Shown here piece after piece: positions 4,626 to 57,987 of a stretch of DNA of 64,000 bases (within the stretch, counting starts at the first letter, position 1; each line of letters starts with the position of its first letter). The DNA comes from a virus, in the IMG/VR virus record IMGVR_UViG_3300045988_166613, positions 87,720-151,719 of that record, one strand, 5' to 3'. The notes beneath the pieces were generated by a model. It had not been told where the DNA came from and searched no databases. It was given only the letters and a program-made list of their open reading frames with translations. The position numbers and the translations under genes are program-made.

Positions 4626-5252
4626 ATGGAAACAATGATTAAAAATTGTCAAAGAGGAGATGTATTTTATGCTAATCTTGGAGAAAAACCAGAAGGAGTT
4701 CAAGATTGCGAACAATATGGGATGAGACCAGTTGTAATAATTCAAAATAATAAAGGAAACAGATATAGTCCTACTACAATAATTGCACCAATAACAACAA
4801 AGATAAACAAAAATAAGATTCCTACACACGTAAAACTAGACGGGGAATACATAGGTTTACCAAAAGAAAGTATGGCAATGTTAGAACAAATTAGAGTTTT
4901 AGATAAAAGAAAACTAAAAGAAAAAATAGGGGAAATAAGCCCAAAAGATAGAAAGAAAATAAATGTTGCAGCGGCATTATCTTTAAATCTATTATCTATA
5001 GAAGAAAAGAATTTAGAAATAATAGAAGAGAAAGTTAATGAAATTGAAAGAATAGATTCACACATAAGATATGCGATCAAAAATGGAGTAGATATAGAAA
5101 ATTTCTTTGAAGGTTTAATAGAAGAAAGAGAGGCTGTTATGGAGGATTTAGAAGCTTTTTGTAAAGCTAATGGATTAAATCATAATGATTTTTTGAAAGG
5201 GTGTAACAAAAGAAAAATAAGTAAAAAAAGCAACAAAATAGGGGTGTGTTAA
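4626..5252 (+). CDS. MazF/EndoA (PemK-family) endoribonuclease with ~85-aa C-terminal extension
   Basis: 'RGDVFYANL...RPVVIIQNNKGNRYSPTTIIAPITTKINKNKIPTHVKL...MLEQIRVLDKRKLKEKI' aligns along its length with B. subtilis EndoA/MazF. Residues after ~125 are extra. Confidence 0.9.
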   Translation: METMIKNCQRGDVFYANLGEKPEGVQDCEQYGMRPVVIIQNNKGNRYSPTTIIAPITTKINKNKIPTHVKLDGEYIGLPKESMAMLEQIRVLDKRKLKEKIGEISPKDRKKINVAAALSLNLLSIEEKNLEIIEEKVNEIERIDSHIRYAIKNGVDIENFFEGLIEEREAVMEDLEAFCKANGLNHNDFLKGCNKRKISKKSNKIGVC

Positions 5253-5955: not shown

Positions 5956-7686
5956 ATGCCAAGAAAGAAAACACATGAAGAGTTTGTTAAAGAGATTAAA
6001 GATAAATATGGGAATGAGTATGAGATATTAGGCAAGTATGTTAATGCGAAAAATAAAATTAAAGTTAGACACAACTGTAATAAATGTAGTAATTACGAGT
6101 GGGAAGTTACGCCTGATAGTTTATTAAGAGGAACTAGATGTCCTATATGCAATGGTGGAGTTAAAAAGACACATAAAGAGTTTATTGAGAGAATTAGAAA
6201 AAAATATAATGGAGAATACGAGATTTTAGGAAAATATATAAATGCAAAAACTAAAATATTGGTAAGACATAATTGTGATAAATGTGATTTTCACAAATGG
6301 AATATTACGCCAAGTAATTTATTGAGAGGATATGGTTGCCCAAAGTGTGCGGGGAATATTAAAAAAACTACAGAAGAATTTAAACAAGAAGTTTATGATA
6401 AATATAAAGATGAATACATTGTTTTAGGAGAATATAAAAATACCAATTCTAAGATATTGATTGAACATAATTGTAAAGAATGTCATTATCATCAATGGGA
6501 AATAACCCCTAGCAAACTATTATGCGGTAGAGGTTGTCCTGTATGTGGAGGTACTAAGAAGAAGACGCATGAGGAATTTATTCAAGAAATTAAAGATAAA
6601 TATGGTAATGATTATGAGGTTTTGGGAGAATATGTAAGCAATGATAAAAAAGTATTAATAAGACATAATTCCGATAAGTGTAATTATCATGAGTGGAAAA
6701 CATTACCTAATAATTTGTTAAAAGGACATGGTTGCCCAGTTTGTGGTGGTAGAGAAGCCAAATTAGGTATTAACACTATATGGGATACCGACAGATGGAT
6801 GTGTAATTTAGGTGTTTCTGAGGAAGATGCAAAGAAATATAGCAGAGGCAGTAGTAGAAAAATCACTGTAACATGTCCCGATTGTGGGAGAAAAAAGAAA
6901 ATCGAACCTCATGCTATATTACAACATAAAACCATATTTTGTTCATGTGGTGATGGAAAGAGTTACCCTGAGAAATTTATTATGAATTTCTTAGAACAAT
7001 TAGGTTTAGAGTTTGAAACAGAGTATAAACCACAATGGATCGATAACAAAAGATACGATTTTCATATTAAAGATAATAGTTGTATTATTGAAACTCATGG
7101 CGAACAGCATTATAAACAAACATCAAGAAGAGGGGAGAGATCAAGAACACTTGAAGAAGAACAAGAAAACGATAAGTACAAGAGAGAAATGGCATTAAAG
7201 AATGGAATTAAGTATTACGTTGAATTAGACTGTAGAGAATCTAATATGGAGTGGATAAAAAAATCAATAATCAACTCTGAATTAAATAAGTTATTTGATT
7301 TATCAAATATAGATTGGACAAGCTGTGAAGAGTTTGCTAATAAAAATATAGTTAAGGAAGTATGTGATTATTGGAATCATAAAAGAGAAGATGAGACAAC
7401 AAGCGATTTAATGAGAAGATTTGTTTTGGCGAGAATAACGATAATAAGGTATCTTAAAAAAGGAACAGAGCTTGGTTGGTGTGAATATAATCCTAAAGAA
7501 CATTATAAGAAAGTAGAAGTATTTAAAGATAATAAAAGCTTAGGAATATTCTCATCTTGTGCCGAACTCGAAAGACAAAGTGAGAAGTTATTTGGGATAA
7601 AATTATTAAATCAAAGTATTTCAGATGTTTGTAATAGCAAAAAATCTCAATATAAAGGATTTACTTTTAAATATATAATAAATTAG
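5956..7686 (+). CDS. free-standing homing-endonuclease-like protein: 4 tandem zinc-ribbon modules + PD-(D/E)XK (Vsr/DUF559-like) core
   Basis: Four ~66-aa repeats 'KKTHEEF..KYG.EYE.LG.Y...K...RHNC.KC...W...P..LL.G.GCP.C.G' span nt 5965-6756. An extra CxxC..CxC follows, then 'YDFHIKDNSCIIETHGEQHY' (D...E.HG.QH nuclease motif). C-terminal 'YKGFTFKY'. Confidence 0.6.
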   Translation: MPRKKTHEEFVKEIKDKYGNEYEILGKYVNAKNKIKVRHNCNKCSNYEWEVTPDSLLRGTRCPICNGGVKKTHKEFIERIRKKYNGEYEILGKYINAKTKILVRHNCDKCDFHKWNITPSNLLRGYGCPKCAGNIKKTTEEFKQEVYDKYKDEYIVLGEYKNTNSKILIEHNCKECHYHQWEITPSKLLCGRGCPVCGGTKKKTHEEFIQEIKDKYGNDYEVLGEYVSNDKKVLIRHNSDKCNYHEWKTLPNNLLKGHGCPVCGGREAKLGINTIWDTDRWMCNLGVSEEDAKKYSRGSSRKITVTCPDCGRKKKIEPHAILQHKTIFCSCGDGKSYPEKFIMNFLEQLGLEFETEYKPQWIDNKRYDFHIKDNSCIIETHGEQHYKQTSRRGERSRTLEEEQENDKYKREMALKNGIKYYVELDCRESNMEWIKKSIINSELNKLFDLSNIDWTSCEEFANKNIVKEVCDYWNHKREDETTSDLMRRFVLARITIIRYLKKGTELGWCEYNPKEHYKKVEVFKDNKSLGIFSSCAELERQSEKLFGIKLLNQSISDVCNSKKSQYKGFTFKYIIN

Positions 7687-12321: not shown

Positions 12322-12335
12322 AGGGAGTGTTACAT

Positions 12336-12848
12336 ATGAAAAAAGAATTATTTCTTGTTATCGGAGAGTCTGGATGTGGAAAAGACTATTCTATTGATAG
12401 ACTTTGTAAAGAGTTTAAGAAGGGAAAAGTGGTTTCAAGAACCACTAGAGCAAGAAGACCTAATGAAAAAGGTACGCATCTATTCGTTGATAGTGAACAA
12501 GCAGATAAAGAATTTGATAAAGCAATAGCAAAAACAATAATTAATAATAATAGATATTATGTATTAGAAGAAGATTTAATCGATAAAACATTTTATGTGA
12601 TTGATTTTAAGGGTGTACATAATATGAAGGATAAAGATAAATACAATACTATAACAGTTTATATAGATGTAAATCCTTTTAAAAGAGCTTATAGAATGTT
12701 TAAAAGGAGAGATAAAATAAAAGATATTATATATAGATTAAAACATGATGGAAAAGAGTTAAGAGGATTTAAAGCTGATTTAACATTTAAGAATAATAAT
12801 GAGTTTTATGATTATTTTAAGGAGAAGTTTGAAAGTGAAAGAGTATAA
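12336..12848 (+). CDS. guanylate-kinase-like P-loop (d)NMP kinase
   Basis: Walker A 'GESGCGKD'. 'VVSRTTRARRPNEKGTHLFV' resembles the Gmk signature vS.TTR.pR.gE.dG..Y.FV. Confidence 0.5.
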   Translation: MKKELFLVIGESGCGKDYSIDRLCKEFKKGKVVSRTTRARRPNEKGTHLFVDSEQADKEFDKAIAKTIINNNRYYVLEEDLIDKTFYVIDFKGVHNMKDKDKYNTITVYIDVNPFKRAYRMFKRRDKIKDIIYRLKHDGKELRGFKADLTFKNNNEFYDYFKEKFESERV

Positions 12849-13161: not shown

Positions 13162-13458
13162 ATGGGTAATTGTAAAATCAGTTTTAAAAATATAAAGATG
13201 TATAGAAAAATGAAACATTATTCCCAATCAAGATTGGCTGAAGAAATTGGGACTAGCATTACCAAAATATCAAGGTTGGAAAATGATAAAGAAAAATTTC
13301 CTAGACTTGATGTCGTAGAGAAAATAGGTGATGTTTTAGAAGTATGTCCTTTTGATTTAATGACTTGTCATTGTGTGCATAAGAAGAAAAATGGTTGTAT
13401 GCATTGTGGTAAGAAATGCGAAAGAGTTAAAGAAATTGATAAAAGAAAGGAAGAGTGA
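13162..13458 (+). CDS. XRE-family HTH regulator with Cys/His-rich tail
   Basis: 'YSQSRLAEEIGTSITKISRLENDK' is a classic Cro/C1 HTH. C-terminal 'CPFDLMTCHCVHKKKNGCMHCGKKC'. Confidence 0.75.
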   Translation: MGNCKISFKNIKMYRKMKHYSQSRLAEEIGTSITKISRLENDKEKFPRLDVVEKIGDVLEVCPFDLMTCHCVHKKKNGCMHCGKKCERVKEIDKRKEE

Positions 13459-13459
13459 G

Positions 13460-15430
13460 ATGGAAAGTTATAGAAGTGAATCTAAGATAAAAGAAATGAA
13501 AAGTTTAATATCTGAATTGAATACTGCTAGTGATATGTATTATAATACTTCAAATACTATTATGAGTGATAAAGAATGGGATATTAAACTTGATAGATTA
13601 AAAGAATTAGAAAAAGAAACTGGAATAGTTTTAAATAACTCGCCTTCTGTTAATGTTGGATATGAAGTTAAAAGTAAACTAGAAAAAGTTAAGCATGAAT
13701 ATGTTTTAAGATCATTAGGTAAAACTCAAGATATAGATGAATTAAATAGCTTTATTGGTAATAAAAAAGCCGTAGGAATGCTTAAATTAGATGGTTTAAC
13801 AACAGATATTATATACGAAGATGGTAAATTAATAAAAGGAAGTACAAGAGGAAATGGAGAAATAGGGGAAAATATCACACACAATGTAAAAACTTATGTT
13901 AATGTTCCTCAAGAGATTAGATATAAAGGAAAAGTACATATAGTAGGAGAATCAATAGCAACGTATGATGTATTTAATGAAGTTAATTCTAAAATATTAA
14001 AGAAAGAAGATAGATTTAAGAATGCAAGAGGTTTAGCTATAGGAAGTGTAAGACAATTAGATAACAGTGTATGTAAAGAAAGAAAAATTCTATTCTTAGC
14101 TTATAATGTTTTTGGTAAAGATTTTATAAGTAAAGAAGGAGAATTAAAGTGGTTATCAGAACAAGGATTTGAAGTAGTCGATCATAGGATAGTAAATAAT
14201 CTTAATGAAGATATTGAAGAATTAAAAAATATAGCTGCTAACAAGCAAATCCCAATAGACGGATTAGTTTTCACTTATGATGATAAACTATACGGGGAGT
14301 CATTAGGTAATACAGCTCATCACCCTAATCATTCAATGGCATTCAAGTTTTATGACGAAGAAGAAGAAACAGTATTAAGAGAAGTTCAATGGCAAGTAGG
14401 AAGAACAGGGGTAATAACTCCAGTTGCGATATTTGAACCTGTAGAATTAGATGGTACGGAAGTAACTAAAGCAACTTTACATAATGTTAGTACAATGAAG
14501 AAATTTAAACTAGGTTTAGGAGACAAAATCACAGTTTATAAAGCAAATCAAATAATACCTCAAATCAGAGAAAATCTAACTCAATCAGACACATTAGAAA
14601 TACCTAGTAAATGTCCAGTATGTGGTCATAATACCAATATAAAAATAAGTGATAATGCTGAGTTCTTAATGTGTGAAAATCCTAATTGTAAAGCTCAATT
14701 AGTTCAAAAAATTAAGCATTATTGTAGTAGAAATGCTATGAATATTGAAGGTTTAAGTGAAAAGACAATAGAAAAATTTATTGAAAAAGGATATCTAAGT
14801 AGTATCGGAGATATTTATAAATTACAAGATAAAACAGAAATTAAAAGATTAGAAGGTTTTGGTATTAAATCATTTAATAATCTAGTTAAAAATATAGAAA
14901 AATCTAAGAAATGTAAATTAGAAAATTTTATATATGCTTTAGGTATTCCAAACGTAGGTAAAACAACAGCAAAAACATTTATAGAATTTATAAAAGGAGG
15001 TAATCCATATATTAAGCTATGTAATATTGAATTTTTAACGGTAGATGATTTGTTGAAAATGAAGGATTGTGGAGAAATAGTTGCTAATAGTATAATAGAC
15101 TGGTTTCACAATAAAGATAATATAAATCTAGTTAGTAGTTTTATAGATGAAATAGATTTTATAATAGAAGAAAAAGTAGAAGTTATAGCTAAAGAAAATC
15201 CATTAAAAGGTATGAAAGTTTATCCAACAGGAAAATTTACATTAAAGAAAAGTGAGTTAAAAACTAAATTAGAAGAATTAGGAGCTATAGTTGAAAGTGG
15301 ATATAAAAAATCACTAGATTATTTAATATTAGCTAATGATTCTAGTAAAAGTAGTAAAAAAGATAAAGCTATTAAAGATGGTGTTAAATTATTTACCGAA
15401 GAAGAGTTAATGAAACTATTGGAGGAATAA
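13460..15430 (+). CDS. ligA: NAD+-dependent DNA ligase
   Basis: KxDG adenylation site 'MLKLDGLT', Zn finger 'CPVCGH...CENPNC', HhH region and C-terminal BRCT-like region. ATG at 13460 lies 1 nt after the HTH stop. Confidence 0.9.
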   Translation: MESYRSESKIKEMKSLISELNTASDMYYNTSNTIMSDKEWDIKLDRLKELEKETGIVLNNSPSVNVGYEVKSKLEKVKHEYVLRSLGKTQDIDELNSFIGNKKAVGMLKLDGLTTDIIYEDGKLIKGSTRGNGEIGENITHNVKTYVNVPQEIRYKGKVHIVGESIATYDVFNEVNSKILKKEDRFKNARGLAIGSVRQLDNSVCKERKILFLAYNVFGKDFISKEGELKWLSEQGFEVVDHRIVNNLNEDIEELKNIAANKQIPIDGLVFTYDDKLYGESLGNTAHHPNHSMAFKFYDEEEETVLREVQWQVGRTGVITPVAIFEPVELDGTEVTKATLHNVSTMKKFKLGLGDKITVYKANQIIPQIRENLTQSDTLEIPSKCPVCGHNTNIKISDNAEFLMCENPNCKAQLVQKIKHYCSRNAMNIEGLSEKTIEKFIEKGYLSSIGDIYKLQDKTEIKRLEGFGIKSFNNLVKNIEKSKKCKLENFIYALGIPNVGKTTAKTFIEFIKGGNPYIKLCNIEFLTVDDLLKMKDCGEIVANSIIDWFHNKDNINLVSSFIDEIDFIIEEKVEVIAKENPLKGMKVYPTGKFTLKKSELKTKLEELGAIVESGYKKSLDYLILANDSSKSSKKDKAIKDGVKLFTEEELMKLLEE

Positions 15431-18376: not shown

Positions 18377-18647
18377 GAATAAAATATTAGATTGGCATAG
18401 ATGGTATGAAGATGATAATTATGTAATAATTGAAAATTTATATGAAGAAAATGGTATTATTAAATCTGAATTTATGTTAGGTATATATAAAGGGGATAAA
18501 TGCACTTCAAAATATAAATATAAATTTAATACCGAATCCATAGGAAGATCAACCTTTATAAAATTAAAAAATATAAAGTCAGATTATGAAATACAAAAAT
18601 ATATATATTATTTAATTAAGAAAACTGAATGTTTAACAAAAATATAA
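18369..18647 (+). CDS. hypothetical protein
   Basis: Packed open frame with SD GGAGAG upstream. Confidence 0.55.
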   Translation: MNKNKILDWHRWYEDDNYVIIENLYEENGIIKSEFMLGIYKGDKCTSKYKYKFNTESIGRSTFIKLKNIKSDYEIQKYIYYLIKKTECLTKI

Positions 18648-18718
18648 ATTTCAAATATTTATATTTTAGAAGTAAATAAAATCATACTTTTAAAGAAATG
18701 AGAGGAGGAGATGTTTTG

Positions 18719-18964
18719 ATGGAAATAACAAAAAATGATTTTGCTTATTTAAAAGAAAAAATAGAATTTGGGGATTTAAGAATTAAAGATTATGGGGAAA
18801 TAAAATATAACTATTGTCCTAAATATTGGGGATTAAAAGATTACTCAACTAATCCTAATAGAAGTTGTAATCAAGACATAGAAGACTGTTTCTTGTGTTG
18901 GGAAGAAAAATTAACAAAAAAGGAATTAAGAAAATATAATAAATTAAAGTTAGAGGTGAAATAA
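18719..18964 (+). CDS. hypothetical protein
   Basis: ATG at 18719 follows GAGGAGGAG. Its stop overlaps the methylase start. Confidence 0.55.
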   Translation: MEITKNDFAYLKEKIEFGDLRIKDYGEIKYNYCPKYWGLKDYSTNPNRSCNQDIEDCFLCWEEKLTKKELRKYNKLKLEVK

Positions 18965-19647
18965 TGTTAATACATAATAATTCAATTGAATATTTAAAAG
19001 AGATGAAGGAGTGTAGCGTTGATTTAATAGTTACAGATCCTCCATACAAAACTATAACTGGAGGAAATAGTGATGGAGCTAACTCTAAAAGACCTCAAGG
19101 TATGTTAGATGGGAATAGAAAATTATTCAAACATCAAAAATTAAAAATATCAGATTGGATGGGTGACATATATAGAGTTTTAAAAGAAGGTTCTCATTGT
19201 TATATAATGACAAATAGTTTAAATATGGAGGAAATGTTAACTGAAAGTAGGAAAGCAGGTTTTAAACTTCACAATATTCTAGTGTGGGAGAAAAATAATT
19301 GCACACCATCTCAATTTTATATGAAGAATTGTGAATATACTTTATTCCTAAGAAAAGGGAAAGCTAAATGGATAAATGATATAGGTGGAAGCAAAACAGT
19401 ACATAAATACAATAATATAATAGGAAAGAAAACACATCCATGTGAAAAGCCAGTAGAATTAATGGAGTTTTATATCAAAAATTCATCGAATGAAGGAGAT
19501 GTTGTACTAGATCCATTTATGGGAACTGGTAGTGTTGGAGTAGCTTGTTTAAATACCAATAGGAAGTTTATAGGAATAGAATTAGATGATAAATATTTTG
19601 ATATAGCGAAAGAAAGAATAGAAATGATAAATAAGGAAGCATGTTAA
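18964..19647 (+). CDS. orphan DNA methyltransferase (N6-adenine/N4-cytosine, beta class)
   Basis: 'DLIVTDPPY' catalytic motif comes first, then the AdoMet motif 'VLDPFMGTGSVGVA' near the C-terminus. No adjacent restriction enzyme recognised. Confidence 0.85.
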   Translation: MLIHNNSIEYLKEMKECSVDLIVTDPPYKTITGGNSDGANSKRPQGMLDGNRKLFKHQKLKISDWMGDIYRVLKEGSHCYIMTNSLNMEEMLTESRKAGFKLHNILVWEKNNCTPSQFYMKNCEYTLFLRKGKAKWINDIGGSKTVHKYNNIIGKKTHPCEKPVELMEFYIKNSSNEGDVVLDPFMGTGSVGVACLNTNRKFIGIELDDKYFDIAKERIEMINKEAC

Positions 19648-19648
19648 A

Positions 19649-19855
19649 ATGGTAGAAATAACTTATGATTTGAACGGATCAAATATTAAATACATATTTT
19701 ATGATGATAGAGGTAAAGAAGAATACTATATAGATAATAATTTAGTAGAGGTAAGTTATCTTAATGAAAGCATAGATGAATACATTAGAGAAATGAAAGA
19801 AGGTTTAGAGATATTAAAATTAGTAAATAATATAACAAATGTTGAAATAAATTAA
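19649..19855 (+). CDS. hypothetical protein
   Basis: Starts 1 nt after the methylase stop. Its last codons and stop lie inside the AT-rich box. Confidence 0.5.
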   Translation: MVEITYDLNGSNIKYIFYDDRGKEEYYIDNNLVEVSYLNESIDEYIREMKEGLEILKLVNNITNVEIN

Positions 19856-19891
19856 ATAATTGATTGACATTTGTTATAATGAGAGTATAAT
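19841..19891 (+). promoter_or_regulatory. AT-rich box + sigmaA promoter
   Basis: GTTGAAATAAATTAAATAATTGA is fused to TTGACA-N16-TATAAT. Confidence 0.7.
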
Positions 19892-19955
19892 AGTAGATGT
19901 TAAGAGAATTTTAACACATATTTAAAAATAAATCAAAGAATAGAGAGGAATATAT

Positions 19956-20612
19956 ATGAAAGTAGAAATATTAAAAGTTAGTGGAATCAACGAAGCGTTA
20001 TTTGGCATGAGAAACCCACTTAATAGCTGGGGTTTAAGTGATACAAAAGATGATATAATAGGTGAAAAAGATTTAAAGCTAGCTCAAAGATTAATAGATG
20101 GTGGAACAGAACATTGTAAATTTATGAGACAAATTCAAGTGTGGTTAAATATAACTGCACCGAGATATTGGTGGTCAGAGTTTGATACATATAAAATAGG
20201 AACGAGCGCTAATAGTACAAGCACAATGCATAAATTATTTGATAAGAAAACCGAAATAAAAGTTAATATGTTTGAAGTACATAGTGATTTTGAGAGGAAA
20301 ATAATAAATGAATTAATTAAAGAGTTAAATGTATTAAGAGATAGTTATTTTAAAGCAACAACTCAACAAGAAAAGGATTTAATATTGGTTACAGCTAAGA
20401 GAATACTTTCAGAAAGTTATTTAAATCTTAGAACAGTAAATTTAAACTATGCAGTATTAAGAAATATCATAATTCAAAGAAAGAATCATAGGTTAAAATA
20501 TGAGTGGCAAGAATGTTTTTGTAGAGAAATAACTAAGCTGCCTTATGCTAAACAACTTATATTCTATGGTATAGAAGAAGATTATGAGAGATTAAAAGGA
20601 GAAAATAACTAA
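19956..20612 (+). CDS. divergent ThyX (Thy1)-like protein lacking the RHR signature
   Basis: Collinear with ThyX: 'EHCKFMRQIQVWLNITAPRYWWSEFDTYKIGTSANSTSTMH' versus T. maritima '[36 protein letters not shown]'. RHR is replaced by TYK, and S.RY by STMH. Confidence 0.55.
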   Translation: MKVEILKVSGINEALFGMRNPLNSWGLSDTKDDIIGEKDLKLAQRLIDGGTEHCKFMRQIQVWLNITAPRYWWSEFDTYKIGTSANSTSTMHKLFDKKTEIKVNMFEVHSDFERKIINELIKELNVLRDSYFKATTQQEKDLILVTAKRILSESYLNLRTVNLNYAVLRNIIIQRKNHRLKYEWQECFCREITKLPYAKQLIFYGIEEDYERLKGENN

Positions 20613-21469
20613 TGATAATAGATTGTAAAAAGATAAGAGAAGAAATAAAACAAGAATTGAAGAAAAAGGATTTAAGCAAGATAAAAGGAGTTTTTATTCA
20701 GATAGGAGATAATCAAGCTAGTAACTTATATGTTAATAACAAATGTAAGTTATGCAAGGAATTAGGAATAGATTATGAATATATTAAACTAGATGAGAAT
20801 ATATCTGAAGAGGAATTATTAAATATAATAGATATGTTAAACAAAACTAAATGTGTAACGGGGATAATGGTACAATTGCCATTACCAAAGCATATAAGTG
20901 AGGAAAAAGTTATAAATGCTATAGATCCTAATAAAGATATAGATGGATTTACTAATGTGAACAAAGGTAAATTAATGATAGGAGATGAAACTGGAATTAT
21001 TCCATGCACTCCGCAAGGAATAATAACAACCTTAGAACATGAAAATATAGATGTTGAAGGTAAAAATGTAGTTATAGTAGGAAGAAGTAATATAGTAGGT
21101 AAACCACTAGCACAATTATTAATAAATAAAGGGGCTACGGTAACCGTTTGTAACAGTAAAACTGATAGAGAAGTATTAAAACAACAAATCATTCTTTCTG
21201 ATATATTTATCAGTGCTATAGGACAACCTAATTACTTTAATAAAAGCTTTTTCATGGAAAATGATAATAATTTTTATCCAGAATTTTTAGAAAATATAAT
21301 AGCAATAGATGTGGGAATAAATAGAGATAAGAATAATAAGTTATGTGGGGATATTTCAAAAGATATTTATGATTATTTTGATAGTGTAACGCCAGTTCCT
21401 GGAGGCGTTGGTGTAATGACTGTCTTAGAGCTTGTAAGAAATCTAATAAAGTGTGGTGAGAATAATTAA
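20612..21469 (+). CDS. folD: bifunctional methylene-THF dehydrogenase/methenyl-THF cyclohydrolase
   Basis: Full-length similarity to FolD: 'GIMVQLPLP', 'DKDIDGF', 'PCTPQGI', 'VVIVGRSNIVGKP', 'TPVPGGVGVMTV'. The start overlaps the thyX-like stop (TAATG). Confidence 0.9.
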   Translation: MIIDCKKIREEIKQELKKKDLSKIKGVFIQIGDNQASNLYVNNKCKLCKELGIDYEYIKLDENISEEELLNIIDMLNKTKCVTGIMVQLPLPKHISEEKVINAIDPNKDIDGFTNVNKGKLMIGDETGIIPCTPQGIITTLEHENIDVEGKNVVIVGRSNIVGKPLAQLLINKGATVTVCNSKTDREVLKQQIILSDIFISAIGQPNYFNKSFFMENDNNFYPEFLENIIAIDVGINRDKNNKLCGDISKDIYDYFDSVTPVPGGVGVMTVLELVRNLIKCGENN

Positions 21470-21764
21470 TACAAATGAAATTAAAGAGCTTAGAGGGGTA
21501 TTCCCTCATGAGCTTAATAAAAATAAATTAAAGAATTACTTATACTTACACAGTGATGATGTTAAAGAAGGTTTTATAAATGAAACTTTAGTTTGGTATA
21601 AGAATAATACTTATAATAGAGAGATTTTCAAAGAGGATAAGGTAGAAAGAGAAGATATAATTACTAAAGTTAAACTTAAAGGAAGAGAGTTTGAAAAAGA
21701 GATTATACATAAGATAAAAACTGGAATAATAAAAGATTGGTATCAACTAGCATTAGTTTTATAA
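21453..21764 (+). CDS. hypothetical protein (doubtful 5' end)
   Basis: 103-codon open frame, but with a GTG start and no SD. A hairpin and a copy of the AT-rich box lie inside its first 30 codons. Confidence 0.35.
   Translation: MVRIINTNEIKELRGVFPHELNKNKLKNYLYLHSDDVKEGFINETLVWYKNNTYNREIFKEDKVEREDIITKVKLKGREFEKEIIHKIKTGIIKDWYQLALVL
21487..21514 (+). terminator. hairpin after folD
   Basis: AGCT..GAGGG(gtatt)CCCTC..AGCT: stems of 4 and 5 bp with an internal loop. Confidence 0.3.
21519..21537 (+). repeat. AT-rich box copy (inside the predicted ORF 21453..21764)
   Basis: AAAATAAATTAAAGAATTA. Confidence 0.5.
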
Positions 21765-21784
21765 AATTTATTTAATGGATATAG

Positions 21785-21813
21785 TTGCAAATAAAACGGA
21801 AAATAGGTATAAT
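21785..21813 (+). promoter_or_regulatory. sigmaA promoter
   Basis: TTGCAA-N17-TATAAT. Confidence 0.7.
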
Positions 21814-21819
21814 CAAATA

Positions 21820-21833
21820 AGAACATATGTTCG
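21820..21833 (+). promoter_or_regulatory. LexA (Cheo/SOS) box
   Basis: AGAACATATGTTCG contains the perfect palindrome GAAC-ATAT-GTTC. It matches the Gram-positive consensus CGAACRNRYGTTYC and starts 7 nt after the -10. Confidence 0.6.
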
Positions 21834-21958
21834 CACTTAAAGGTATATAATTTCATAGTGCCTCTGTAATTATATTAATATTAGATTACCTATACAAGGT
21901 TATAAGTAACTTAAAATTAGTATTAAGTAATTTATTTTTAGAAAATGGTAATTTAATA

Positions 21959-21987
21959 TTGAAATTAGTAAATATATGTAGTATATT
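21959..21987 (+). promoter_or_regulatory. second, gene-proximal promoter
   Basis: TTGAAA-N17-TATATT, about 20 nt upstream of the ATG at 22008. Confidence 0.45.
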
Positions 21988-22007
21988 AAATATGAGGAGG
22001 AGATATT

Positions 22008-22832
22008 ATGAAATATGAAAGCAAACCGAAGCCAAACAGTCAAGGATTAAGTATGAAAACATCCAAACCAGCTATGTATTGCATAGATTCCGTAGCAGAG
22101 GGAGCTAATAGAATAGGAGTTTCCATAGGAGAAAATTTCAATTGTACTAAAGCTTCAATAATTAGAGATATGATTGAGGCAGCGATAATATCTAATGCTA
22201 ATATATTAACCATAGAAGATAGAACTTTTTCTATAAGAGAACTTATAGAGATTGAAAACCCAGATATGAACAATATAACAAACATTATGGATATTGTATT
22301 GGATAGTAAAAAGGATTATATAGAAATAAAAGAAAATTTCAAAAATTTTATATTAAAAACAACTTATGAAATTTTTTATGAGATGAAAGAAGATATAAAA
22401 GATGAATTGGAACTAAATAAAGAAGACATTGAAAATTATGATTCAATTATTAATGATTTTAATTTCATAATTGAATCTTATAGAAGCACTAGAGAGAAAA
22501 GAGAATTTGAGGAGATCTATTTAAAAGACTTCACGGAATCTGTAGACGAGGTCATTTGTAGAATTGATGATTTAGAAGATTTTGTGTCTGAAAATGATTT
22601 GCTTTGTGATGATTTTGAAAAAAGATTTAAAGACAAGATTAAATCCTTACCAAGATATAATCAAATTAAACCATTATATTTTTATGATAAATTTAGATAT
22701 AAAAACATAACTACACAACTAAAATATACTGTAAAGTTGTGGTACAGATACTTACATTTTTATTCTGTTGGAAGAAATGAAGAACTTACTTATGGTGATT
22801 TTGAAGAACAAATATTTAATTTTATAAAATAA
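22008..22832 (+). CDS. hypothetical protein (possible N-terminal ribbon-helix-helix)
   Basis: SD GAGGAGGAG upstream. N-terminal 'KPAMYCIDSVAEGANRIGVSIGENFNCTKASIIRDMIEAAI' has an RHH-like pattern. The rest is acidic and helical. Confidence 0.55.
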   Translation: MKYESKPKPNSQGLSMKTSKPAMYCIDSVAEGANRIGVSIGENFNCTKASIIRDMIEAAIISNANILTIEDRTFSIRELIEIENPDMNNITNIMDIVLDSKKDYIEIKENFKNFILKTTYEIFYEMKEDIKDELELNKEDIENYDSIINDFNFIIESYRSTREKREFEEIYLKDFTESVDEVICRIDDLEDFVSENDLLCDDFEKRFKDKIKSLPRYNQIKPLYFYDKFRYKNITTQLKYTVKLWYRYLHFYSVGRNEELTYGDFEEQIFNFIK

Positions 22833-24740: not shown

Positions 24741-25322
24741 ATGTATAATAAAATTTATTTTAAATATGGAACAATGTTTAGTGGTAAAAGTTTAAACTTA
24801 ATTTCTACTGCAAAAACCTATAAATTTAATGGTAATAATGTTTTTATTATAAAAGCAAAGCAAGATAGTAGAGATTGTGGAATTATAAAGTCGAGAATGT
24901 CCAATGAAGAGTTGAAGTGTTACATAGTTGATAAGGATATGGATGATCTTAGTTTAATATTTAAAGATAAGTCAAATTTAGACTTAGACATAATTTTAAT
25001 TGATGAAGTTCAATTTTTAACAGTAAAACAAATAGAATCTTTAGTTAAATTATCTGAAATAGCACCTATAATTTGCTATGGATTAAAAAGTAGTTACACA
25101 GGGGATTTATTCCCTTCCATAGCAAAACTATTATCTATTGCAGAGGATATTCAAGAAATCAAAACTACTTGTGGATATTGTAATAAGAAAGCTACACATA
25201 ATTTATTATTAAGAAATGGAAAACCAGTTCATAACGGTGATATGGTAAACGTAGAAGGTAGCAATGTTAATGAAGAATATCAGCAAGTATGTAGATACCA
25301 TTTTTATAATTTAGGTAAATAA
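24741..25322 (+). CDS. tdk: thymidine kinase
   Basis: P-loop 'YGTMFSGKS', 'ILIDEVQF', C-terminal Zn ribbon 'CGYCNKKATHN...CRYH'. Confidence 0.9.
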   Translation: MYNKIYFKYGTMFSGKSLNLISTAKTYKFNGNNVFIIKAKQDSRDCGIIKSRMSNEELKCYIVDKDMDDLSLIFKDKSNLDLDIILIDEVQFLTVKQIESLVKLSEIAPIICYGLKSSYTGDLFPSIAKLLSIAEDIQEIKTTCGYCNKKATHNLLLRNGKPVHNGDMVNVEGSNVNEEYQQVCRYHFYNLGK

Positions 25323-26431: not shown

Positions 26432-28324
26432 ATGGTAGAAATGAAACAGCAATATGATGAATCAAATATAGAGATATTAGAAGGATTAGATCCGGTAAGA
26501 AAAAGACCAGGAATGTATATAGGTTCTACTGATACTAGAGGTTTACATCATTGTGTTTATGAAATTGTTGATAATAGTATTGATGAGGCTTTAACAGGGA
26601 ATTGTAGTTTAATATATGTATCAATTAATGAAGATAATTCAATAACAGTTAAAGATAATGGGAGAGGAATTCCATGTGGTATCCATCCTAAAAAGAATAA
26701 ATCAACATTAGAAGTAATACTTACGGTTCTACATGCTGGAGGTAAATTTAATGGTAAAGGATATAAGGTATCTGGTGGTTTACATGGTGTAGGTTCTTCA
26801 GTAGTTAATGCTTTATCTAAACACATGATAGCAACAGTACATAGAGACGGGAATATATATAGACAAGAATATAAATGTGGTAAACCTATAACAAGCGTTG
26901 ATATTATAGGTAATTGTGAAGATACAGGAACAGAAATTACTTTTTTACCTGATGATACAATATTTGAAACTACTATTTTTAACTATAATACTTTAATGAA
27001 TAGATTTAGAGAAAGTGCATTTTTAAATAAATCTATATCTATAACATTAGAAGATAAAAGAAAGGGTAGAGAACAATTAAAGGAATTCCATTTTGAAGGT
27101 GGTTTAAAAGAATTTATAGAATATGTGGATAGTGATAAAGAAGTTCTTCATGATGTAATATACATAGAAAAATTTAATAATAAGAATAATTTCGGTATAG
27201 AATGTGCTTTTCAATATATTAATGATTATGTTAAATCTATATATACCTACGCTAATAACATTAATACAATTGAAGGTGGTACACATTTAAGTGGTTTTAA
27301 AGAGGGATTTTTAAAAGCAATTAACACTATTGGTAAGGATATGGAGTTAATCAAAAAAGATTTTATAACAAGTGACATGGAAGAGGGATTGTCATTAGTT
27401 GTATCTGTAAAATTACAAGAACCCCAATTTGAAGGACAAACTAAAACCAAGTTAGGAAGTAGTTTTGCTAGAAGCTTAACTTCCGAAATGGTATCGGATT
27501 ATTTAGAAATATTCTTCAAAGAGAATGAAGAAACAACAAGGGTTATAGTAGAGAAATTATTACAAACTCAAAAATTTAGAGAGAATATGAAGAAAAATAA
27601 GGATTTAGAAAAGAAAAAACAATCTTTAAATAGAAATAAATTACCAGGTAAACTTGCTGATTGTTCATCAAAAGATCCAAAGAAATGTGAAATACATATA
27701 GTTGAAGGTGATTCTGCTGGTGGTTCTGCAAAACAAGGAAGGGATAGAAAATTCCAAGCTATATTATCTTCAAAGGGTAAAATAATAAACTGTGAAAAAA
27801 CAACATTAAATAGATTATTAGATTCAGAAGAAATTAAAGCATTTATTGCAGCAATAGGTACTGGAATAGGAGAAGATTTTGATATTAGTAAATTAAGATA
27901 TGAAAGAATACATTTACTACAAGATGCAGACAGTGACGGGGTGGGGCATATAAGAGTTTTATGGCTAACGTTTATATATAGACATATGAGAGAGTTAATA
28001 GAGCAAGGGCATGTTTATTTTGATGTTCCTCCTTTATACAAGAATGTAATAGGAAAAGAAATACACTATACTTATTCAGAAAATGAACAATTAAAGTTTT
28101 TAGATGAACATAAAAAAGTAGGGAATATTCAACGTTTTAAAGGGCTTGGAGAAATGAGTGCCGACCAATTATGGGAAACAACTCTAAATCCTGATACAAG
28201 AATATTACAACAGGTAACAATAGAAGATGCAATAGAATGTGATAAAATGATAAGTTTATTAATGGGACAAGAAGTAAAACCTAGAAAAGATTTTATTAAA
28301 AAGTTCTTACAGGAGGAAAAATAA
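26432..28324 (+). CDS. gyrB: type IIA topoisomerase subunit B (GyrB/ParE-like)
   Basis: GHKL ATPase 'EIVDNSIDE', '[14 protein letters not shown]', TOPRIM '[15 protein letters not shown]', 'DADSDG'. Confidence 0.9.
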
Positions 28325-28325
28325 T

Positions 28326-30632
28326 ATGAATAATAGAATAGAAGTAGTGAATTTAGCAGAAATAATGCCTAAAAATTATGTTGAATATGCAGTAGAGGTT
28401 ATTGTCAATAGAGCATTACCAGATGTTAGAGATGGTTTAAAACCAGTCCTAAGAAGAATTATATATGGTATGTATGAATTAAAGATGTTTCCAGAAACAC
28501 CATATAAAAAATGTGCCAGAATAGTTGGGGAAGTTTTAGGTAAGTATCATCCGCACGGTGATTCATCGGTTTATGAGGCATTGGTTAGAATGGCTCAAGA
28601 CTTTTCTTTAAGATACACATTAGTTGACGGACATGGTAACTTTGGGTCTGTTGATGGAGACTCAGCAGCGGCTATGAGGTACACAGAATCTAAAATGAAA
28701 GCAATAGCTTTAGAATTAATTAGAGATATTGATAAAAATACAGTTGATTTTATTCCTAACTTTGATGGTGAAGAAACAGAACCATCAGTTTTACCTTCTA
28801 AATTCCCCAATTTATTAGTCAATGGTGCAACTGGAATAGCTGTTGGTTTTGCTAGTAATATGCCACCACATAATTTATGTGAAGTCATAGATGCAATTAA
28901 ATATAGATTAAATAATAAGGAGTGCAGTTTAGAAGAAATAATGCAATTTATAAAAGCACCCGATTTTCCAACTGGAGGAATTATTGTTAATCCAAAAGAT
29001 ATGAAGAATATATATAAACAAGGTATAGGAAAGGTTATTATGCGTGGTAAACATCATGTGGAATATTTAAAAAATGATAAAAGCAAAGAAATAGAAGCTA
29101 TTGTTATTACAGAATTACCATATCAAGTCAATAAAGCCAAATTAATAGAAAAGATATATGAATTATCAAACGATCAAGAAAAGGTTGAAAAGGGTAAAAA
29201 AATAAAAATAAAAGCTAAAATACCTGAGATTACTGATATACGAGATGAATCTGATAGAGAAGGTATGAGAATAGTTATAGAATTAAAAAATAAAGGTACA
29301 TATAAAAGAGTATTACAATTATTATATAAAGAATCTAATCTACAGTGTAATTTTAATGTTAATAATGTTGCTTTGGTAAATGGATTACCTGAAGACAATC
29401 TATCATTAATAAAACTAATAGATTATTATATAGCTCATCAAAAGGATGTTATGATTAGAAAAACTCATTTTGATAAAGAGAAATTTTCAAGTAAGTTACA
29501 TATATTAGAGGGATTAACTATAGCTTTAGATAAAATGGATTTTACAATATCATTAATAAGGAAATCAAAAACAAAGGTTGAGGCAAAAGAATATTTAAAG
29601 CAAGAACTAAGTATAGATGATGTACAAGCTGATGCTATCTTACAAATGCAATTACAAAGGTTAACTAATCTTGAGAAAGATGGTATATATAAACAAGTAG
29701 AAAAATTGAATGATGATATAAAGTTTTTAAATTCAATATTAGAGAATGAAAATGTATTAATAGAAGAATTAATTAAAGACTTAAACGTGATAAAAGATAA
29801 ATTTGGTGATGAAAGAAGAACTCAATTAATTGAGGGAGAAGTTATAAATAATGATATGCTAATAGAACAATATAACACAATAATTCAGCTAACAGATGAA
29901 GGATATATAAAGAAATTAAGAGCAACATCAGTTAAAAGTACAAATAAAAATAGATTAAAAGATGGAGATTTTATAATTAAAGAAATAAAAGGAACAAATA
30001 AAGATACTATATTATTGTTCTCAGATAAGGGAAATGCGTATCAAATTAAAGCAAAAGATTTAAAAGAGTTGAAGCCAGGAGAATTGGGAGAATTAATCAG
30101 TAGTTATCATGATTTAGATAAAGATGAGCAGATCAAGTTTATAGTATCTACACAATTTAATAAAAATGAATATATGATAAGTGTTTTTGATAATAGCAAG
30201 ATAGCAAAAGTTGATATTCAAGCTTACAATATGACTACTAAAAAGTTTAAATATAATAACATAGGTTTAATGGATATTAAAAATATACAAGGGGATAAGG
30301 ATATTTTCTTATTAAGTTCTGAAGGTAAGGCGTTAATATGCAACACTGATAAAATAGGTGTTAAATCAAATAGAAATGTATTAGGTAATATAGGAATTAA
30401 ACTTAATGAAGGATTTAAAGTTGTAGCAGCCATTATTAATGTTACCAAAGATGATAGATTTACAATACATACAGAAAAAGGCAAAGAGATATTTATTATG
30501 TTAGATGATGTGTCTAGTAATGAATCTAAGAATTGGTTCAACCATCTACAAGGTCGTGCAGGAAACCAAGGAAGTTTTCTTTATAATACAAGATCCAAGA
30601 ATGATTTAATAACTAATGTAGAGGTGGATTAA
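28326..30632 (+). CDS. gyrA: type IIA topoisomerase subunit A (GyrA/ParC-like)
   Basis: '[12 protein letters not shown]', '[17 protein letters not shown]', active-site Tyr context 'AAMRYTE'. The C-terminal domain is divergent. Confidence 0.9.
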
Positions 30633-32158: not shown

Positions 32159-32356
32159 ATGATTAACATGGATATTTGGAATAAGTCTTACAACCAAGAT
32201 TGGTTAGAAATGAGAGAAGATCTAAAAGAAGATGAGGTAATATTATTAGTACCAACAAAAGTTAAATTTGATAAGAATGGAATAGTAATGAGCAATAGAA
32301 CAGGTAGTACACTTGATAATTATAAAAAAGAAATTGAAAAAGGAGGAGTACAATGA
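32159..32356 (+). CDS. hypothetical protein
   Basis: SD AAAGAGG upstream. Confidence 0.55.
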   Translation: MINMDIWNKSYNQDWLEMREDLKEDEVILLVPTKVKFDKNGIVMSNRTGSTLDNYKKEIEKGGVQ

Positions 32357-33198
32357 AAGATTATATTTACATGAATGAGAAAAGGGTATGTAACTATTTT
32401 GCCCAAATAGATAAAAGAGGTATGTTAAATAGCTCAAAAGAAACAATTTCAAATGAAAGCGATGAAACAAAAGGGAAGAAAGGAGAAATACAACTTAAAG
32501 CAAAAATAAAAGGTATTTTTGGAATAGAAGGAAAAGGAGAAATAACGAAAGAAAATAAGAATAAATTCAATTCCTGTTGTGAACAATTGTATGAACAAAA
32601 ATCTGTTAATATGTGTAATTTATTAGAGCAACATTTTAAAGAGAATATTGATAGTTTTAAAATAGGAGAAGTTTGCAAAATTAGTAATTGTGATATTTAT
32701 TTTATTGATTTTCAACAAATAACATATGATTATAGACATTTGTTTGACAATTTAAAATTGTTTCATAAAATGCAAGGTAAAATGAGCATAAATGAATTCA
32801 AAGAAATGGCTAAAATAAATAATTTGAACGTTACAAAACAACAATTAATTAGTTTTGCTAAATTCATAGAAGATACATATGGAGATAATATATATATGGT
32901 TATTGTTGCAAATGGAAAAAGATTTGTTGGTTTACTTGATAGATCTAATTTAATGGTTGGTAATATAGAATTTAAAAGAATCATCAAAGAGGGGCTTAGG
33001 GGAACTGTTCTTTTTAAGATATTACGTAAGCCAATAAATGATGGTAATAACAAAAAATATTATAAACCTAAAAAAGATGATGAGGGCATTTTGAATGATA
33101 TTGCTCAATTAAATGATACACTAAATGAATATAATAGTTTAATGTCTTTAGTAAAAGAAGGAGACATCTCTATATTACCGATGGCTATATATGTTTAA
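32353..33198 (+). CDS. hypothetical protein (281 aa)
   Basis: ATGA overlap with the previous gene. No recognisable motif. Confidence 0.65.
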   Translation: MKDYIYMNEKRVCNYFAQIDKRGMLNSSKETISNESDETKGKKGEIQLKAKIKGIFGIEGKGEITKENKNKFNSCCEQLYEQKSVNMCNLLEQHFKENIDSFKIGEVCKISNCDIYFIDFQQITYDYRHLFDNLKLFHKMQGKMSINEFKEMAKINNLNVTKQQLISFAKFIEDTYGDNIYMVIVANGKRFVGLLDRSNLMVGNIEFKRIIKEGLRGTVLFKILRKPINDGNNKKYYKPKKDDEGILNDIAQLNDTLNEYNSLMSLVKEGDISILPMAIYV

Positions 33199-45088: not shown

Positions 45089-46528
45089 ATGCCGTTTTCA
45101 AAAGAATACATACAAAAACTACAAGAACATTTTGTTCATTTACATAACCATAGTGATTATAGTAACTTACGTTTATTAGACTCAATAAATAAAATAAAAG
45201 ATATGATTATATATGTTAGTAGCTTAGGACAAAAAGCATTGGCATTGACAGATCATGAGAGTTTAAGTGGACATATTGAATTCATATTAACAGTTGAAGA
45301 ATTGAAAAAAGAAGGTAAAATTCCTCAAGATTTTAAAGTTATTTTAGGTAATGAAATTTATTTAGTAGATGAAGAGACAATGAAAGAAGAAATAAATGAT
45401 AGTAATTCTACTTCTTTTTATCATTTTCTTTTATTAGCTAAGGATAATGAAGGACATAGAATGTTAAGAGAGTTATCTACTAGAGCTTGGTTAAGAATGT
45501 TTAATTTTAAAAACATGGATAGAGTACCTACATATTATTCAGATTTTGAAGAAGTGGTAGGAGATAACATAGGGCATTTAATAGGTTCTACAGCTTGTTT
45601 AGGAGGATATTTTCCTAGACTTGTTACCACTTTATTAAACACCGAAGATGAAATAATACAAGAAAACATAAAAGATGAAATAGATGACTTTATTATGTGG
45701 TGTATAGGAATTTTTGGACAAGATGATTTTTACATAGAATTACAACCTTCATTAAATCAAGAACAAATAGATTTCAACAATAAAGCAATTCAAATAGCAA
45801 AAGCCTATGGATTAAAACATATAATTACAACTGACTCACATTATTTAACATTGGATAATAAAAGTATCCATGAAGCTTACTTAACTTCTAATGAAGAAGG
45901 CAATAGTAATAGGGAAGTAGGAGAATTTTATCAATCTACACATTTCTTTACTATGGAAGATTTAATGAAAAATATGAGATATCTAGATGTTCAAGATTTT
46001 GAACAAGCTATTAATTATACATATGAAATACAAGATAAAGTAATAGGATATAATCTTGCTAACGATCAAGAGATTCCTTTAACCCCAATTCCTCCAAAGT
46101 CTACATGGAAAAAACATAAAGAATTATATGAATATGCTAAGGATTACGATAATGTACAAGCAATGATAGAAAGTGAGGATAATATTTATAATCAATATTT
46201 AATTAACTTAACTTTTAATGGAATAGAGAAAAGAATTAAAAATAAACAAGAATATAATCAAGTATTTGAAAGAATGAATATTGAATGTAAAGAATTATTG
46301 GGTATATCTGAAGCTAAACAACAACCTGTATCTGGATATTTCACTACAATGGAAAAAATAATTGATATTATTTGGAATGAAGCTGAAGCAATAGTTCCTC
46401 CAGGAAGAGGGAGTGCTGGTGGATATATTATTGATTATTTAGTTGGAATTACACAAGTAAACCCATTAAAACAAGGTGTAGAAATGCCTCATTTTAGATT
46501 CATTAGTGCTGAAAGACCAGATTACCCT
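45089..46528 (+). CDS. dnaE: DNA polymerase III alpha (DnaE-type), exon 1
   Basis: PHP domain 'FVHLHNHSDYSNLR...LTDHESLSG'. The exon ends ...ERPDYP. The track's extension to 46582 is intron read-through. Confidence 0.85.
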
Positions 46529-57819: not shown

Positions 57820-57987
57820 ATGAGTAAAATAATAAAGAGATTACATACCTTATTATTATTCATAGAAGTATTATGTATGATATTGGTATGGTTTCAATCA
57901 AATATTAGTACGTTAAAAATAAGTTGTTTCTGTTTGATAATATGTGTATTTATAAATGATTTGAGTGAGGTAGTTAAACATGAGTAA
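57820..57987 (+). CDS. small membrane protein (55 aa, below track cutoff)
   Basis: ATG follows GAGAGGTG. Two hydrophobic helices. Confidence 0.4.
   Translation: MSKIIKRLHTLLLFIEVLCMILVWFQSNISTLKISCFCLIICVFINDLSEVVKHE

Follow-up and report, generated by a model that had tools for sequence, protein, structure and literature searches.

A ThyX-fold phage protein with a replaced but conserved active site is coupled to folD and may fill the thymidylate synthase position

The window analyzed here is a 64,000-nucleotide (nt) stretch of the IMG/VR virus record IMGVR_UViG_3300045988_166613 (positions 87,720 to 151,719 of that record), and its subject is an open reading frame (ORF) for a 218-amino-acid (aa) protein that runs directly into folD. 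To our knowledge, thymidylate synthesis is found in two forms only, ThyA and ThyX, and catalysis by ThyX is held to require its RHR...S.RY residues, the ligands of flavin adenine dinucleotide (FAD) and deoxyuridine monophosphate (dUMP). The initial annotation had read the protein as collinear with ThyX, with TYK....STMH in place of RHR....S.RY, and had left two alternatives, a modified-pyrimidine pathway or a divergent but functional ThyX. We favor, with a probability of roughly 0.55, the reading that the protein is a catalytically competent, strongly remodeled member of the ThyX superfamily which fills the thymidylate synthase position of its phage. Between the two alternatives, the evidence leans toward a divergent functional ThyX because the gene shares its slot with canonical ThyX or a Thy1 gene in related phages, because no canonical ThyX or ThyA co-occurs in 161 loci, and because the gene sits in modules with dUTPase, NrdDG, and deoxynucleoside monophosphate (dNMP) kinase genes and the window has a thymidine kinase. 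The modified-pyrimidine pathway is possible and less favored.

The protein gave no Pfam match at E ≤ 1 and no NCBIfam match, and phmmer searches of the PDB sequences with the single sequence and with a 35-sequence profile returned chance matches only. It does match phrog_6721, a family of “unknown function”, with E = 2.8e-52 (residues 1-202 on profile positions 8-215 of 218). An AlphaFold2 monomer model, computed from a 35-sequence alignment, had a predicted local distance difference test score (pLDDT) of 90.9 and a predicted template modeling score (pTM) of 0.84. When this model was compared with the PDB by Foldseek, the best match was ThyX of Helicobacter pylori (3ah5_A; E = 1.3e-8, probability 1.00, template modeling (TM) score 0.68, 21% identity). 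The top 50 matches were all ThyX, and the 156 matches at E ≤ 1e-3 included Thermotoga maritima TM0449 many times; no ThyA was among the PDB matches. The same search against BFVD returned uncharacterized members of the family, then phage ThyX, and nothing else.

Alignment of the family to ThyX with hhalign was collinear, placing 1-216 on 1-220 (P = 0.0012 local and 2.7e-4 global). The inputs were a 115-sequence family alignment and a 13-sequence ThyX alignment, the latter made up of T. maritima, H. pylori, Mycobacterium tuberculosis, and PBCV-1 (each 100% identical to a PDB entry) and nine Thermotogae sequences. With shallow alignments (35 family sequences and 24 Thermotogae ThyX), the hhalign probability was 0.4. 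The resulting register, with the family residue given before its T. maritima equivalent, is S24=S30, H53=H53, K55=T55, R58=E58, E75=Q75, T78=R78, Y79=H79, K80=R80, N86=N85, S89=S88, M91=R90, H92=Y91, K148=R147, N164=N163, A166=R165, N170=N169, R175=R174, and H178=H178. Both sequence claims of the initial annotation are borne out: the collinearity by the Foldseek fold match and the full-length alignment, and the replaced signature by the register. These results confirm that the relationship to ThyX is real but remote. The protein fits the ThyX fold yet fails the sequence definition of ThyX (the models, RHR, R90, and Y91), and it is not filed as ThyX here.

Conservation was counted in 190 diverse members of the family, among them the cultured-phage proteins at 27-40% identity. 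Y79, S87, S89, R175, and H178 are 100% conserved; R19, S24, D29, D39, K55, R58, T78, M91, H92, and W184 are at least 97% conserved; and H53, E75, D77, T90, and Y165 are also strongly conserved. At the equivalents of RHR, T78 is present in 186 of the 190 members and Y79 in all of them, and position 80 is basic in 180 (K in 152, H in 20, R in 8). Within the equivalent of S-x-R-Y, S89 does not vary, M91 stands in place of R90 in 185 members, and H92 stands in place of Y91 in 187. R175 and H178, the equivalents of the uracil O4-contacting R174 and of H178, are present in 190 of 190. The equivalent of R147 is K in only 102 members, and that of H. pylori R66 is R in only 85.

In H. pylori ThyX, R74-H75-R76, S50, and R165 contact the FAD phosphates and ribityl chain, R74 and the backbone of V82 contact the flavin ring, and R74, R174, R66, S84, and R86 bind dUMP, with Y87 as the lid (PMC6514825). 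Eight of the 11 family positions equivalent to these FAD and dUMP contacts are at least 85% conserved, where 2.3 are expected (hypergeometric P = 2e-4), and among the 11 the ThyX residue itself is kept only at S84 and R174. As the most conserved residues of the family fall at ThyX ligand-contact positions, the active site is remodeled and not dead, i.e., it is the same pocket with a different lining. The Arg that binds uracil and the Ser of the motif are retained, whereas the other two arginines for dUMP and the majority of the FAD-phosphate ligands have been exchanged. A decayed pseudo-enzyme was considered and rejected on the grounds that conservation is concentrated at ligand positions. Flavin may still be bound, in which case the phosphate contacts of R78/H79/R80 and R165 would pass to K55 (located where ThyX has its FAD-binding Ser/Thr), to R58, and to the basic residue 80.

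The genomic position of the gene was assessed in 58 loci of gut phages of about 150 kb which were retrieved by an NrdD scan (NrdD at least 84% identical, with one at 69%). These phages have a slot about 5 kb upstream of nrdD (loci L083-L140; at about 4.1-5.6 kb within each locus), and its occupants are mutually exclusive. phrog_6721 proteins (lineage c22; TYK...STMH; no Pfam or TIGRFAM match) occupy it in 18 loci, lineage c19, a Pfam Thy1 gene (YTH...STRY; PF02511 E = 1.5e-32; TIGR02170 71 bits at a cut-off of 87.9) in 22, and lineage c124, which is canonical ThyX (RHR...STRY; PF02511 E = 1.7e-46; TIGR02170 130.6 bits), in two (L115 and L137). Lineage c36 (SRHK...SSQRD; PF02511 19 bits, under the cut-off) is found in eight loci and c80 (HARR...NSTRL; PF02511 29 bits) in three, and five loci are without a recognizable occupant. 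The canonical slot-mate of L137 scores 158.9 bits on PF02511; the phrog_6721 member of L088 has no Pfam or NCBIfam match. For L124 (phrog_6721) and L083 (c19), DNA identity is 98.7% along 2.5 kb on the upstream side and 96.7% along 8.2 kb on the downstream side, whereas the swapped gene itself is unalignable; the pair L088/L087 behaves alike. The proteins flanking the slot in these near-isogenic swap pairs are 97-100% identical. In the gut-phage loci, nrdD is also closely preceded by a gene for an NT5C-type deoxynucleotidase, which lies within a few kb of the slot.

Genes for nucleotide metabolism were common around the family gene in a census of 80 IMG/VR loci (neighbors within 6 kb), in which all recurrent neighbors were on the same strand. 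They were NrdD (31 of 80 loci), NAD-dependent ligase LigA (25), a guanylate-kinase-like P-loop kinase (19), DNA polymerase III alpha (18), dUTPase (15), NrdG (15), ClpP (12), and a nucleoside 2-deoxyribosyltransferase-like protein (10). No glycosyltransferase, 5-hydroxymethyluracil (hmU) kinase, or aminotransferase gene was among these recurrent neighbors. The kinase gene lies immediately downstream of the ThyX-like gene in L023, L028, L026, L032, L042, and L056. Gene order in L023 and L028 is FolD, HPr-like, ThyX-like, kinase, NrdD, NrdG, followed in L028 by dUTPase and ligase. In four clusters that are mutually no more than 41-46% identical (P0280, P0421, P0422, and P0423), the ThyX-like domain is fused to a C-terminal guanylate-kinase-like domain, and the P0280 fusion was found on three independent contigs. 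These fusions tie the product to a nucleoside monophosphate. In the complete 42.6-kb genome of the T7-like Desulfovibrio phage ProddE, the gene lies between the DNA polymerase and exonuclease genes, followed by genes for a MazG-like NTPase, a P-loop kinase, NrdD, and NrdG, and the ProddE annotation has no thymidylate synthase. In phiCD211, phiCTP1, and Fnu1, the gene is found amid replication and recombination genes and not nucleotide genes, and in Fnu1 a C5-cytosine methyltransferase gene is directly upstream of it. Searches with a ThyX profile and Escherichia coli ThyA found no second synthase in the window or beside the family gene in the 161 loci.

Linkage to folD recurs outside the window. 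folD is adjacent to the family gene in eight of the 161 loci (binomial P = 1e-11 for enrichment), with five or more different gene orders among them, and lies within 3 kb of it in the window and in L003, L004, L006, L023, L028, L071, and L149. The arrangements include folD overlapping downstream, downstream beyond an HNH gene, and upstream with differing spacer genes. In 50,697 phage records, just 53 had folD, with no phrog_6721 carrier among the matches listed. The link between the two genes is real but facultative.

At the pair itself (Table 1), both ORFs exist as the initial annotation had claimed, and the TAATG overlap with a full-length folD is there: the TAA of the ThyX-like ORF (20610-20612) shares its final A with the folD ATG (20612-20614), a 1-nt overlap. 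The folD product matches phrog_7320 (E = 1e-81) and the folD NCBIfam models (E about 1e-76, yet under the equivalog cut-offs), and its translation has both domains in full length with the motifs YVNNK, QLPLP, DIDGF, GRSNIVGKP, and PVPGGVG. YxxxK, QLPLP, D(I/V)DGF, GRSxxVGxP, and PVPGGVG are the catalytic and NADP motifs of E. coli FolD. The predicted promoter is the sole 12/12 sigma-70 consensus match within 18600..22100. The GTG ORF downstream, which has no Pfam or PHROG match and no homolog among the 80 related loci, is possibly a third gene of the ThyX-like/folD unit.

The orphan beta-class methyltransferase that the initial annotation had placed upstream is present with its motifs in beta order, and it does not belong to the ThyX-like/folD unit. 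A 68-codon ORF (19649..19855) and the perfect consensus promoter lie between it and the ThyX-like ORF, and methyltransferase homologs were near the ThyX-like gene in six of 81 loci, no excess over the usual frequency of phage methyltransferases. We rejected it as part of the system because it is a separate transcription unit and the linkage is not conserved.

Table 1. Features of the window at the ThyX-like/folD pair and genes of nucleotide metabolism
Feature	Position	Strand	Basis and remarks
Guanylate-kinase-like P-loop kinase	12327..12848	+	PF00625 E = 9.6e-6; candidate dNMP kinase acting on the product; in other elements this kinase family is adjacent or fused to the ThyX-like gene
N6/N4 DNA methyltransferase	18964..19647	+	PF01555 E = 2.8e-38; DPPY precedes FxGxG (beta order)
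Predicted sigma-70-type promoter, TTGACA-16 nt-TATAAT	19864..19891	+	Consensus match in the 100-nt gap upstream of the ThyX-like ORF
Shine-Dalgarno-like GAGAGGA	19943..19949	+	6 nt ahead of the ThyX-like ATG; read from sequence
ThyX-like ORF, 218 aa, ATG start	19956..20612	+	TYK/STMH replacing RHR/S.RY; phrog_6721 member
folD ribosome-binding site AAGGAG	20596..20601	+	Within the 3′ end of the ThyX-like ORF, 10 nt before the folD ATG; read from sequence
folD, 285 aa, bifunctional methylene-tetrahydrofolate dehydrogenase/methenyl-tetrahydrofolate cyclohydrolase	20612..21469	+	PF00763 E = 1e-33; PF02882 E = 2e-46
103-codon GTG ORF	21453..21764	+	17-nt overlap with the folD 3′ end
Thymidine kinase	24741..25322	+	PF00265 E = 3e-35; salvage route to thymidine monophosphate (dTMP)
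NrdD in two ORFs	60857..62008 and 62292..63704	+	PF13597, ATP-cone; tblastn with NrdD of related loci
NrdG-like segment	63297..63740	+	tblastn with NrdG from related loci
dUTPase	start about 63777, runs off the window end at 64000	+	E = 4e-19; candidate dUMP source

The thymidine kinase, dUTPase, Gmk-like kinase, and anaerobic ribonucleotide reductase listed in the initial annotation were all located in the window, the dUTPase with a profile of 15 phage dUTPases and E. coli Dut. The nrdD halves are 283 nt apart, with the ATP-cone and the N-terminal half of the NRDD domain in 60857..62008, and similarity to NrdG begins in the same frame as the second nrdD ORF.

These genes can be arranged into a pathway, in which we infer what the ThyX-like enzyme acts on, where its one-carbon unit comes from, and what it makes. 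NrdD and NrdG would reduce uridine and cytidine triphosphates (UTP and CTP), dUTPase would supply dUMP, and the ThyX-like enzyme would transfer a one-carbon unit from 5,10-methylene-tetrahydrofolate (methylene-THF) to C5 of dUMP. The co-translated FolD would regenerate methylene-THF from the formyl/methenyl-THF pool, which is abundant in clostridia. The product, most likely dTMP, would pass to the guanylate-kinase-like dNMP kinase, and the thymidine kinase would add salvage. For conversion of dUMP to dTMP that depends on methylene-THF, with bound FAD and oxidation of NADPH, the folD coupling, the kinase fusions, and the shared slot offer indirect support. A demand for thymidylate is plausible since the element is 74% A+T (the window has 26% G+C), and the thymidine kinase in the window argues that ordinary thymidine nucleotides are used. 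A one-carbon transfer, which the initial annotation had taken to be implied by the FolD coupling, appears to have been called right, judging from the TAATG junction and the full-length FolD.

The phrog_6721 family is large, with at least 7,891 homologs in 90%-identity clusters, none of which has a Pfam domain or an informative name; one UniRef entry is auto-named “Thymidylate synthase”. An exhaustive profile search found at least 4,310 clusters (50% identity) at E ≤ 1e-3, 2,827 of them at E ≤ 1e-10. Almost every member is encoded by a phage, prophage, or plasmid of an anaerobe, and there is no characterized member; our literature searches found no published description of the family. The 78-member cluster that includes the window protein is found on Clostridium perfringens contigs that range from 143 to 160 kb and include one labeled a plasmid, and the source element is a C. 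perfringens phage or phage-plasmid of about 150 kb. At the DNA level it has no relatives among GenBank phages except for the methyltransferase, and none in PLSDB. Cultured carriers are ProddE, Clostridium phage phiCTP1, Enterocloster phages PMBT24 and CB4xx, the Clostridioides difficile phiCD211 group, and Fusobacterium phage Fnu1, and the gene is annotated as hypothetical in every one of them. The family is rare in GTDB genomes (264 stretches) and almost confined to contigs of anaerobic Bacillota. Members also occur in metagenome-assembled genome bins labeled Absconditabacterales, Bacteroides/Bacteroidaceae, and Treponema (L198; L165, L167, L176, L189, and L217), which are probably binned phage contigs and hint at hosts beyond Bacillota. 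Seven members from other metagenomes (P0242, P0246, P0248, P0285, P0322, P0364, and P0379) carry NUMOD4/HNH modules of about 200 aa in frame right after STMH, giving proteins of 400-450 aa. Conserved or essential genes of nucleotide metabolism are typical sites of such homing-endonuclease insertions.

ThyX itself (PF02511, TIGR02170; 1O26, 3AH5, 2AF6, and 2CFA) is a homotetramer in which three subunits contribute to each active site, and its monomer has the same whole-chain fold as the family (TM 0.6-0.7, collinear secondary structure). The equivalents of S88, R174, N85, N163, N169, and H178 are conserved between them, and probably that of H53. The family also resembles ThyX in its phage nucleotide modules, in the identical slot in related phages, and in being a target of homing endonucleases. 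Unlike ThyX, phrog_6721 proteins have T-Y-(K/H/R) for RHR, Met for R90, and His for Y91, have lost the equivalent of R165, have gained conserved K55, R58, E75, D77, Y165, and W184, and go undetected by Pfam and TIGRFAM models. A precedent for changed specificity in the ThyX superfamily is PolB of polyoxin biosynthesis, a flavin-dependent ThyX paralog that methylates uridine monophosphate (UMP) as well as dUMP (PMC5954106). PolB is a close paralog that has been described as a thyX gene, whereas phrog_6721 is far more divergent and phage-borne.

Known phage homologs of ThyA offer another comparison. In T-even phages a ThyA homolog makes 5-hydroxy-deoxycytidine monophosphate (5-hydroxy-dCMP) (PMC13326640). 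T4 gp42 (dCMP hydroxymethylase), the SPO1-type enzyme (dUMP hydroxymethylase), and the RB69/DLP3 enzyme (5-hydroxy-dCMP synthase) each take the place of the ordinary synthase and have an altered active site, a C5 substituent other than that of dTMP, and a product that goes to a phage dNMP kinase (PMC13326640; PMC8989533). They differ from phrog_6721 in having the unrelated ThyA fold, and their phages carry dNTPases and transferases, none of which was seen beside phrog_6721 genes. The arrangement of the ThyX-like/folD pair within a nucleotide module can be compared with T4. In the td-frd-nrd modules of T4, thymidylate synthase is co-located with folate recycling, ribonucleotide reductase, dUTPase/dCTPase, and dNMP kinase. 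The folate partner is dihydrofolate reductase in the T4 module and FolD in the ThyX-like module, and a FolD partner fits a reaction of the ThyX type, which releases tetrahydrofolate (THF) and not dihydrofolate.

Several other genes of the window were recorded. The gene for DNA polymerase III alpha is interrupted: a GIY-YIG-like ORF (46770..47546) separates its two ORFs, 45089..46582 and 48123..50366, in a layout that resembles insertion of an intron or a homing endonuclease. A search of the window with Rfam, the polymerase and nrdD splits included, gave no match to an intron or any other RNA family at E ≤ 0.1. A YspA/SLOG-family protein (57263..57814) adjoins a DUF488-N3a “active subclade” protein (57980..58369), both predicted nucleotide- or base-processing domains. 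A 208-aa protein with a MazF/PemK-like toxin domain (4626..5252), a 576-aa DUF4379 zinc-ribbon/CapR-homology protein (5956..7686), and a DUF6414 protein (32353..33198) may be related to conflict or defense. The element encodes both gyrase subunits, GyrB and GyrA, as well as a BRCT-containing NAD-dependent DNA ligase (26432..30632 and 13373..15430), and its replication gene set is unusually complete for a phage-plasmid-like element of its size (about 150 kb).

A number of observations weigh against a competent enzyme in the thymidylate synthase position. R78/H79/R80 have become T/Y/K, R90 has become Met, Y91 has become His, and the equivalent of R165 is not conserved, and in canonical ThyX the lost residues bind the FAD phosphates and dUMP (PMC6514825). 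No curated ThyX model in Pfam or NCBIfam recognizes the protein, and folD is missing from about 95% of the loci. The loci with certified ThyX (L115 and L137) are syntenic, but their flanks are more diverged (about 50-65% protein identity), and the near-isogenic swap partner, c19, is itself without RHR and below the TIGR02170 cut-off. The alternation of five ThyX-superfamily lineages in a single slot could just as well reflect a diversification of chemistry. We hold our confidence in the functional-ThyX reading at the stated level because the protein has lost the canonical ligands of FAD and dUMP, because the partner in the cleanest swap is non-canonical, and because the chemistry is deduced.

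A rival reading is that the protein has been neofunctionalized, carrying out C5 one-carbon chemistry on a pyrimidine mononucleotide to give a product other than dTMP, which the kinase would phosphorylate and which would be incorporated as a protective base. We regard this as possible but tentative. The candidate products are 5-hydroxymethyl-dUMP, 5-methyl-dCMP, and 5-hydroxymethyl-dCMP, and the slot lineages would be alternative base chemistries. Such a change would agree with the exchange of the dUMP-holding R78, R90, and Tyr lid for conserved T78, M91, and H92, and with the newly conserved E75, D77, K55, and R58, which read as a specificity signature and not as decay. It would also agree with at least five ThyX-superfamily lineages of differing motifs in one slot of closely related phages, a pattern that resembles the diversification of ThyA homologs in T-even phages (PMC13326640), with a dedicated kinase adjacent or fused as in hydroxymethyl-pyrimidine phages, and with the deoxynucleotidase of the NT5C type close to the slot. 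Yet near-isogenic phages swap the gene for a Thy1 gene with nothing else altered within about 10 kb, and a change of DNA base normally needs extra functions, e.g., exclusion of the canonical dNTP or transferases. The absence of glycosyltransferase, hmU kinase, and aminotransferase genes from the recurrent neighbors speaks against it as well, as does the thymidine kinase of the window, and the C5-cytosine methyltransferase upstream in Fnu1 argues against wholesale C5-substituted cytosine there. A related proposal, which we consider doubtful, is a cofactor-remodeled C5 one-carbon transferase that perhaps does not use FAD canonically and whose product is not dTMP, with the slot holding base-chemistry cassettes. 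It is likewise doubtful that such interchangeable lineages would be selected by host restriction or defense, with FolD recruited as a feeder.

Two further explanations were considered. A ThyX fold without one-carbon transfer, serving as a nucleotide-binding regulator or sponge or in unrelated nucleotide chemistry (hydrolase or isomerase) with an incidental folD adjacency, would account for the loss of the canonical FAD-binding residues, for the roughly 95% of loci that lack folD, for the silence of the curated models, and for the position of the gene among replication and recombination genes in phiCD211, phiCTP1, and Fnu1. We consider it unlikely in view of the concentration of conserved residues where ThyX contacts its ligands (the Arg and Ser that bind uracil among them), the enrichment of folD (P = 1e-11) across several gene orders with the 1-nt stop/start overlap in the window, the slot held in common with bona fide ThyX, and homing-endonuclease insertions of the type seen in essential nucleotide enzymes. 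Reuse of the fold on uracil in DNA or RNA, by a polynucleotide-directed methylase functionally like TrmFO/RlmFO, seems very improbable to us. The arginines that clamp the dUMP 5′-phosphate are indeed lost or variable (R90 to M, and the equivalents of R147 and H. pylori R66) and the gene is often among replication genes, but the recurrent kinase fusion or adjacency, the dUTPase and NrdDG neighborhoods, and the size of the protein, 218 aa without a nucleic-acid-binding extension, stand against it.

The functional-ThyX reading concerns a family of several thousand clusters in which the ThyX scaffold and the location of the active site are retained, with a different set of conserved residues, in the thymidylate synthase slot. 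Its hosts span gut and other anaerobes, including Clostridium, Clostridioides, Enterocloster, Fusobacterium, and Desulfovibrio. If the product is another pyrimidine, the family would open a new route into DNA modification by phages of anaerobes. If the product is dTMP, the ThyX fold would be shown to support a flavin or folate site of a second design, which would bear on the design of ThyX-targeted drugs and would make a large family of “hypothetical proteins” annotatable.

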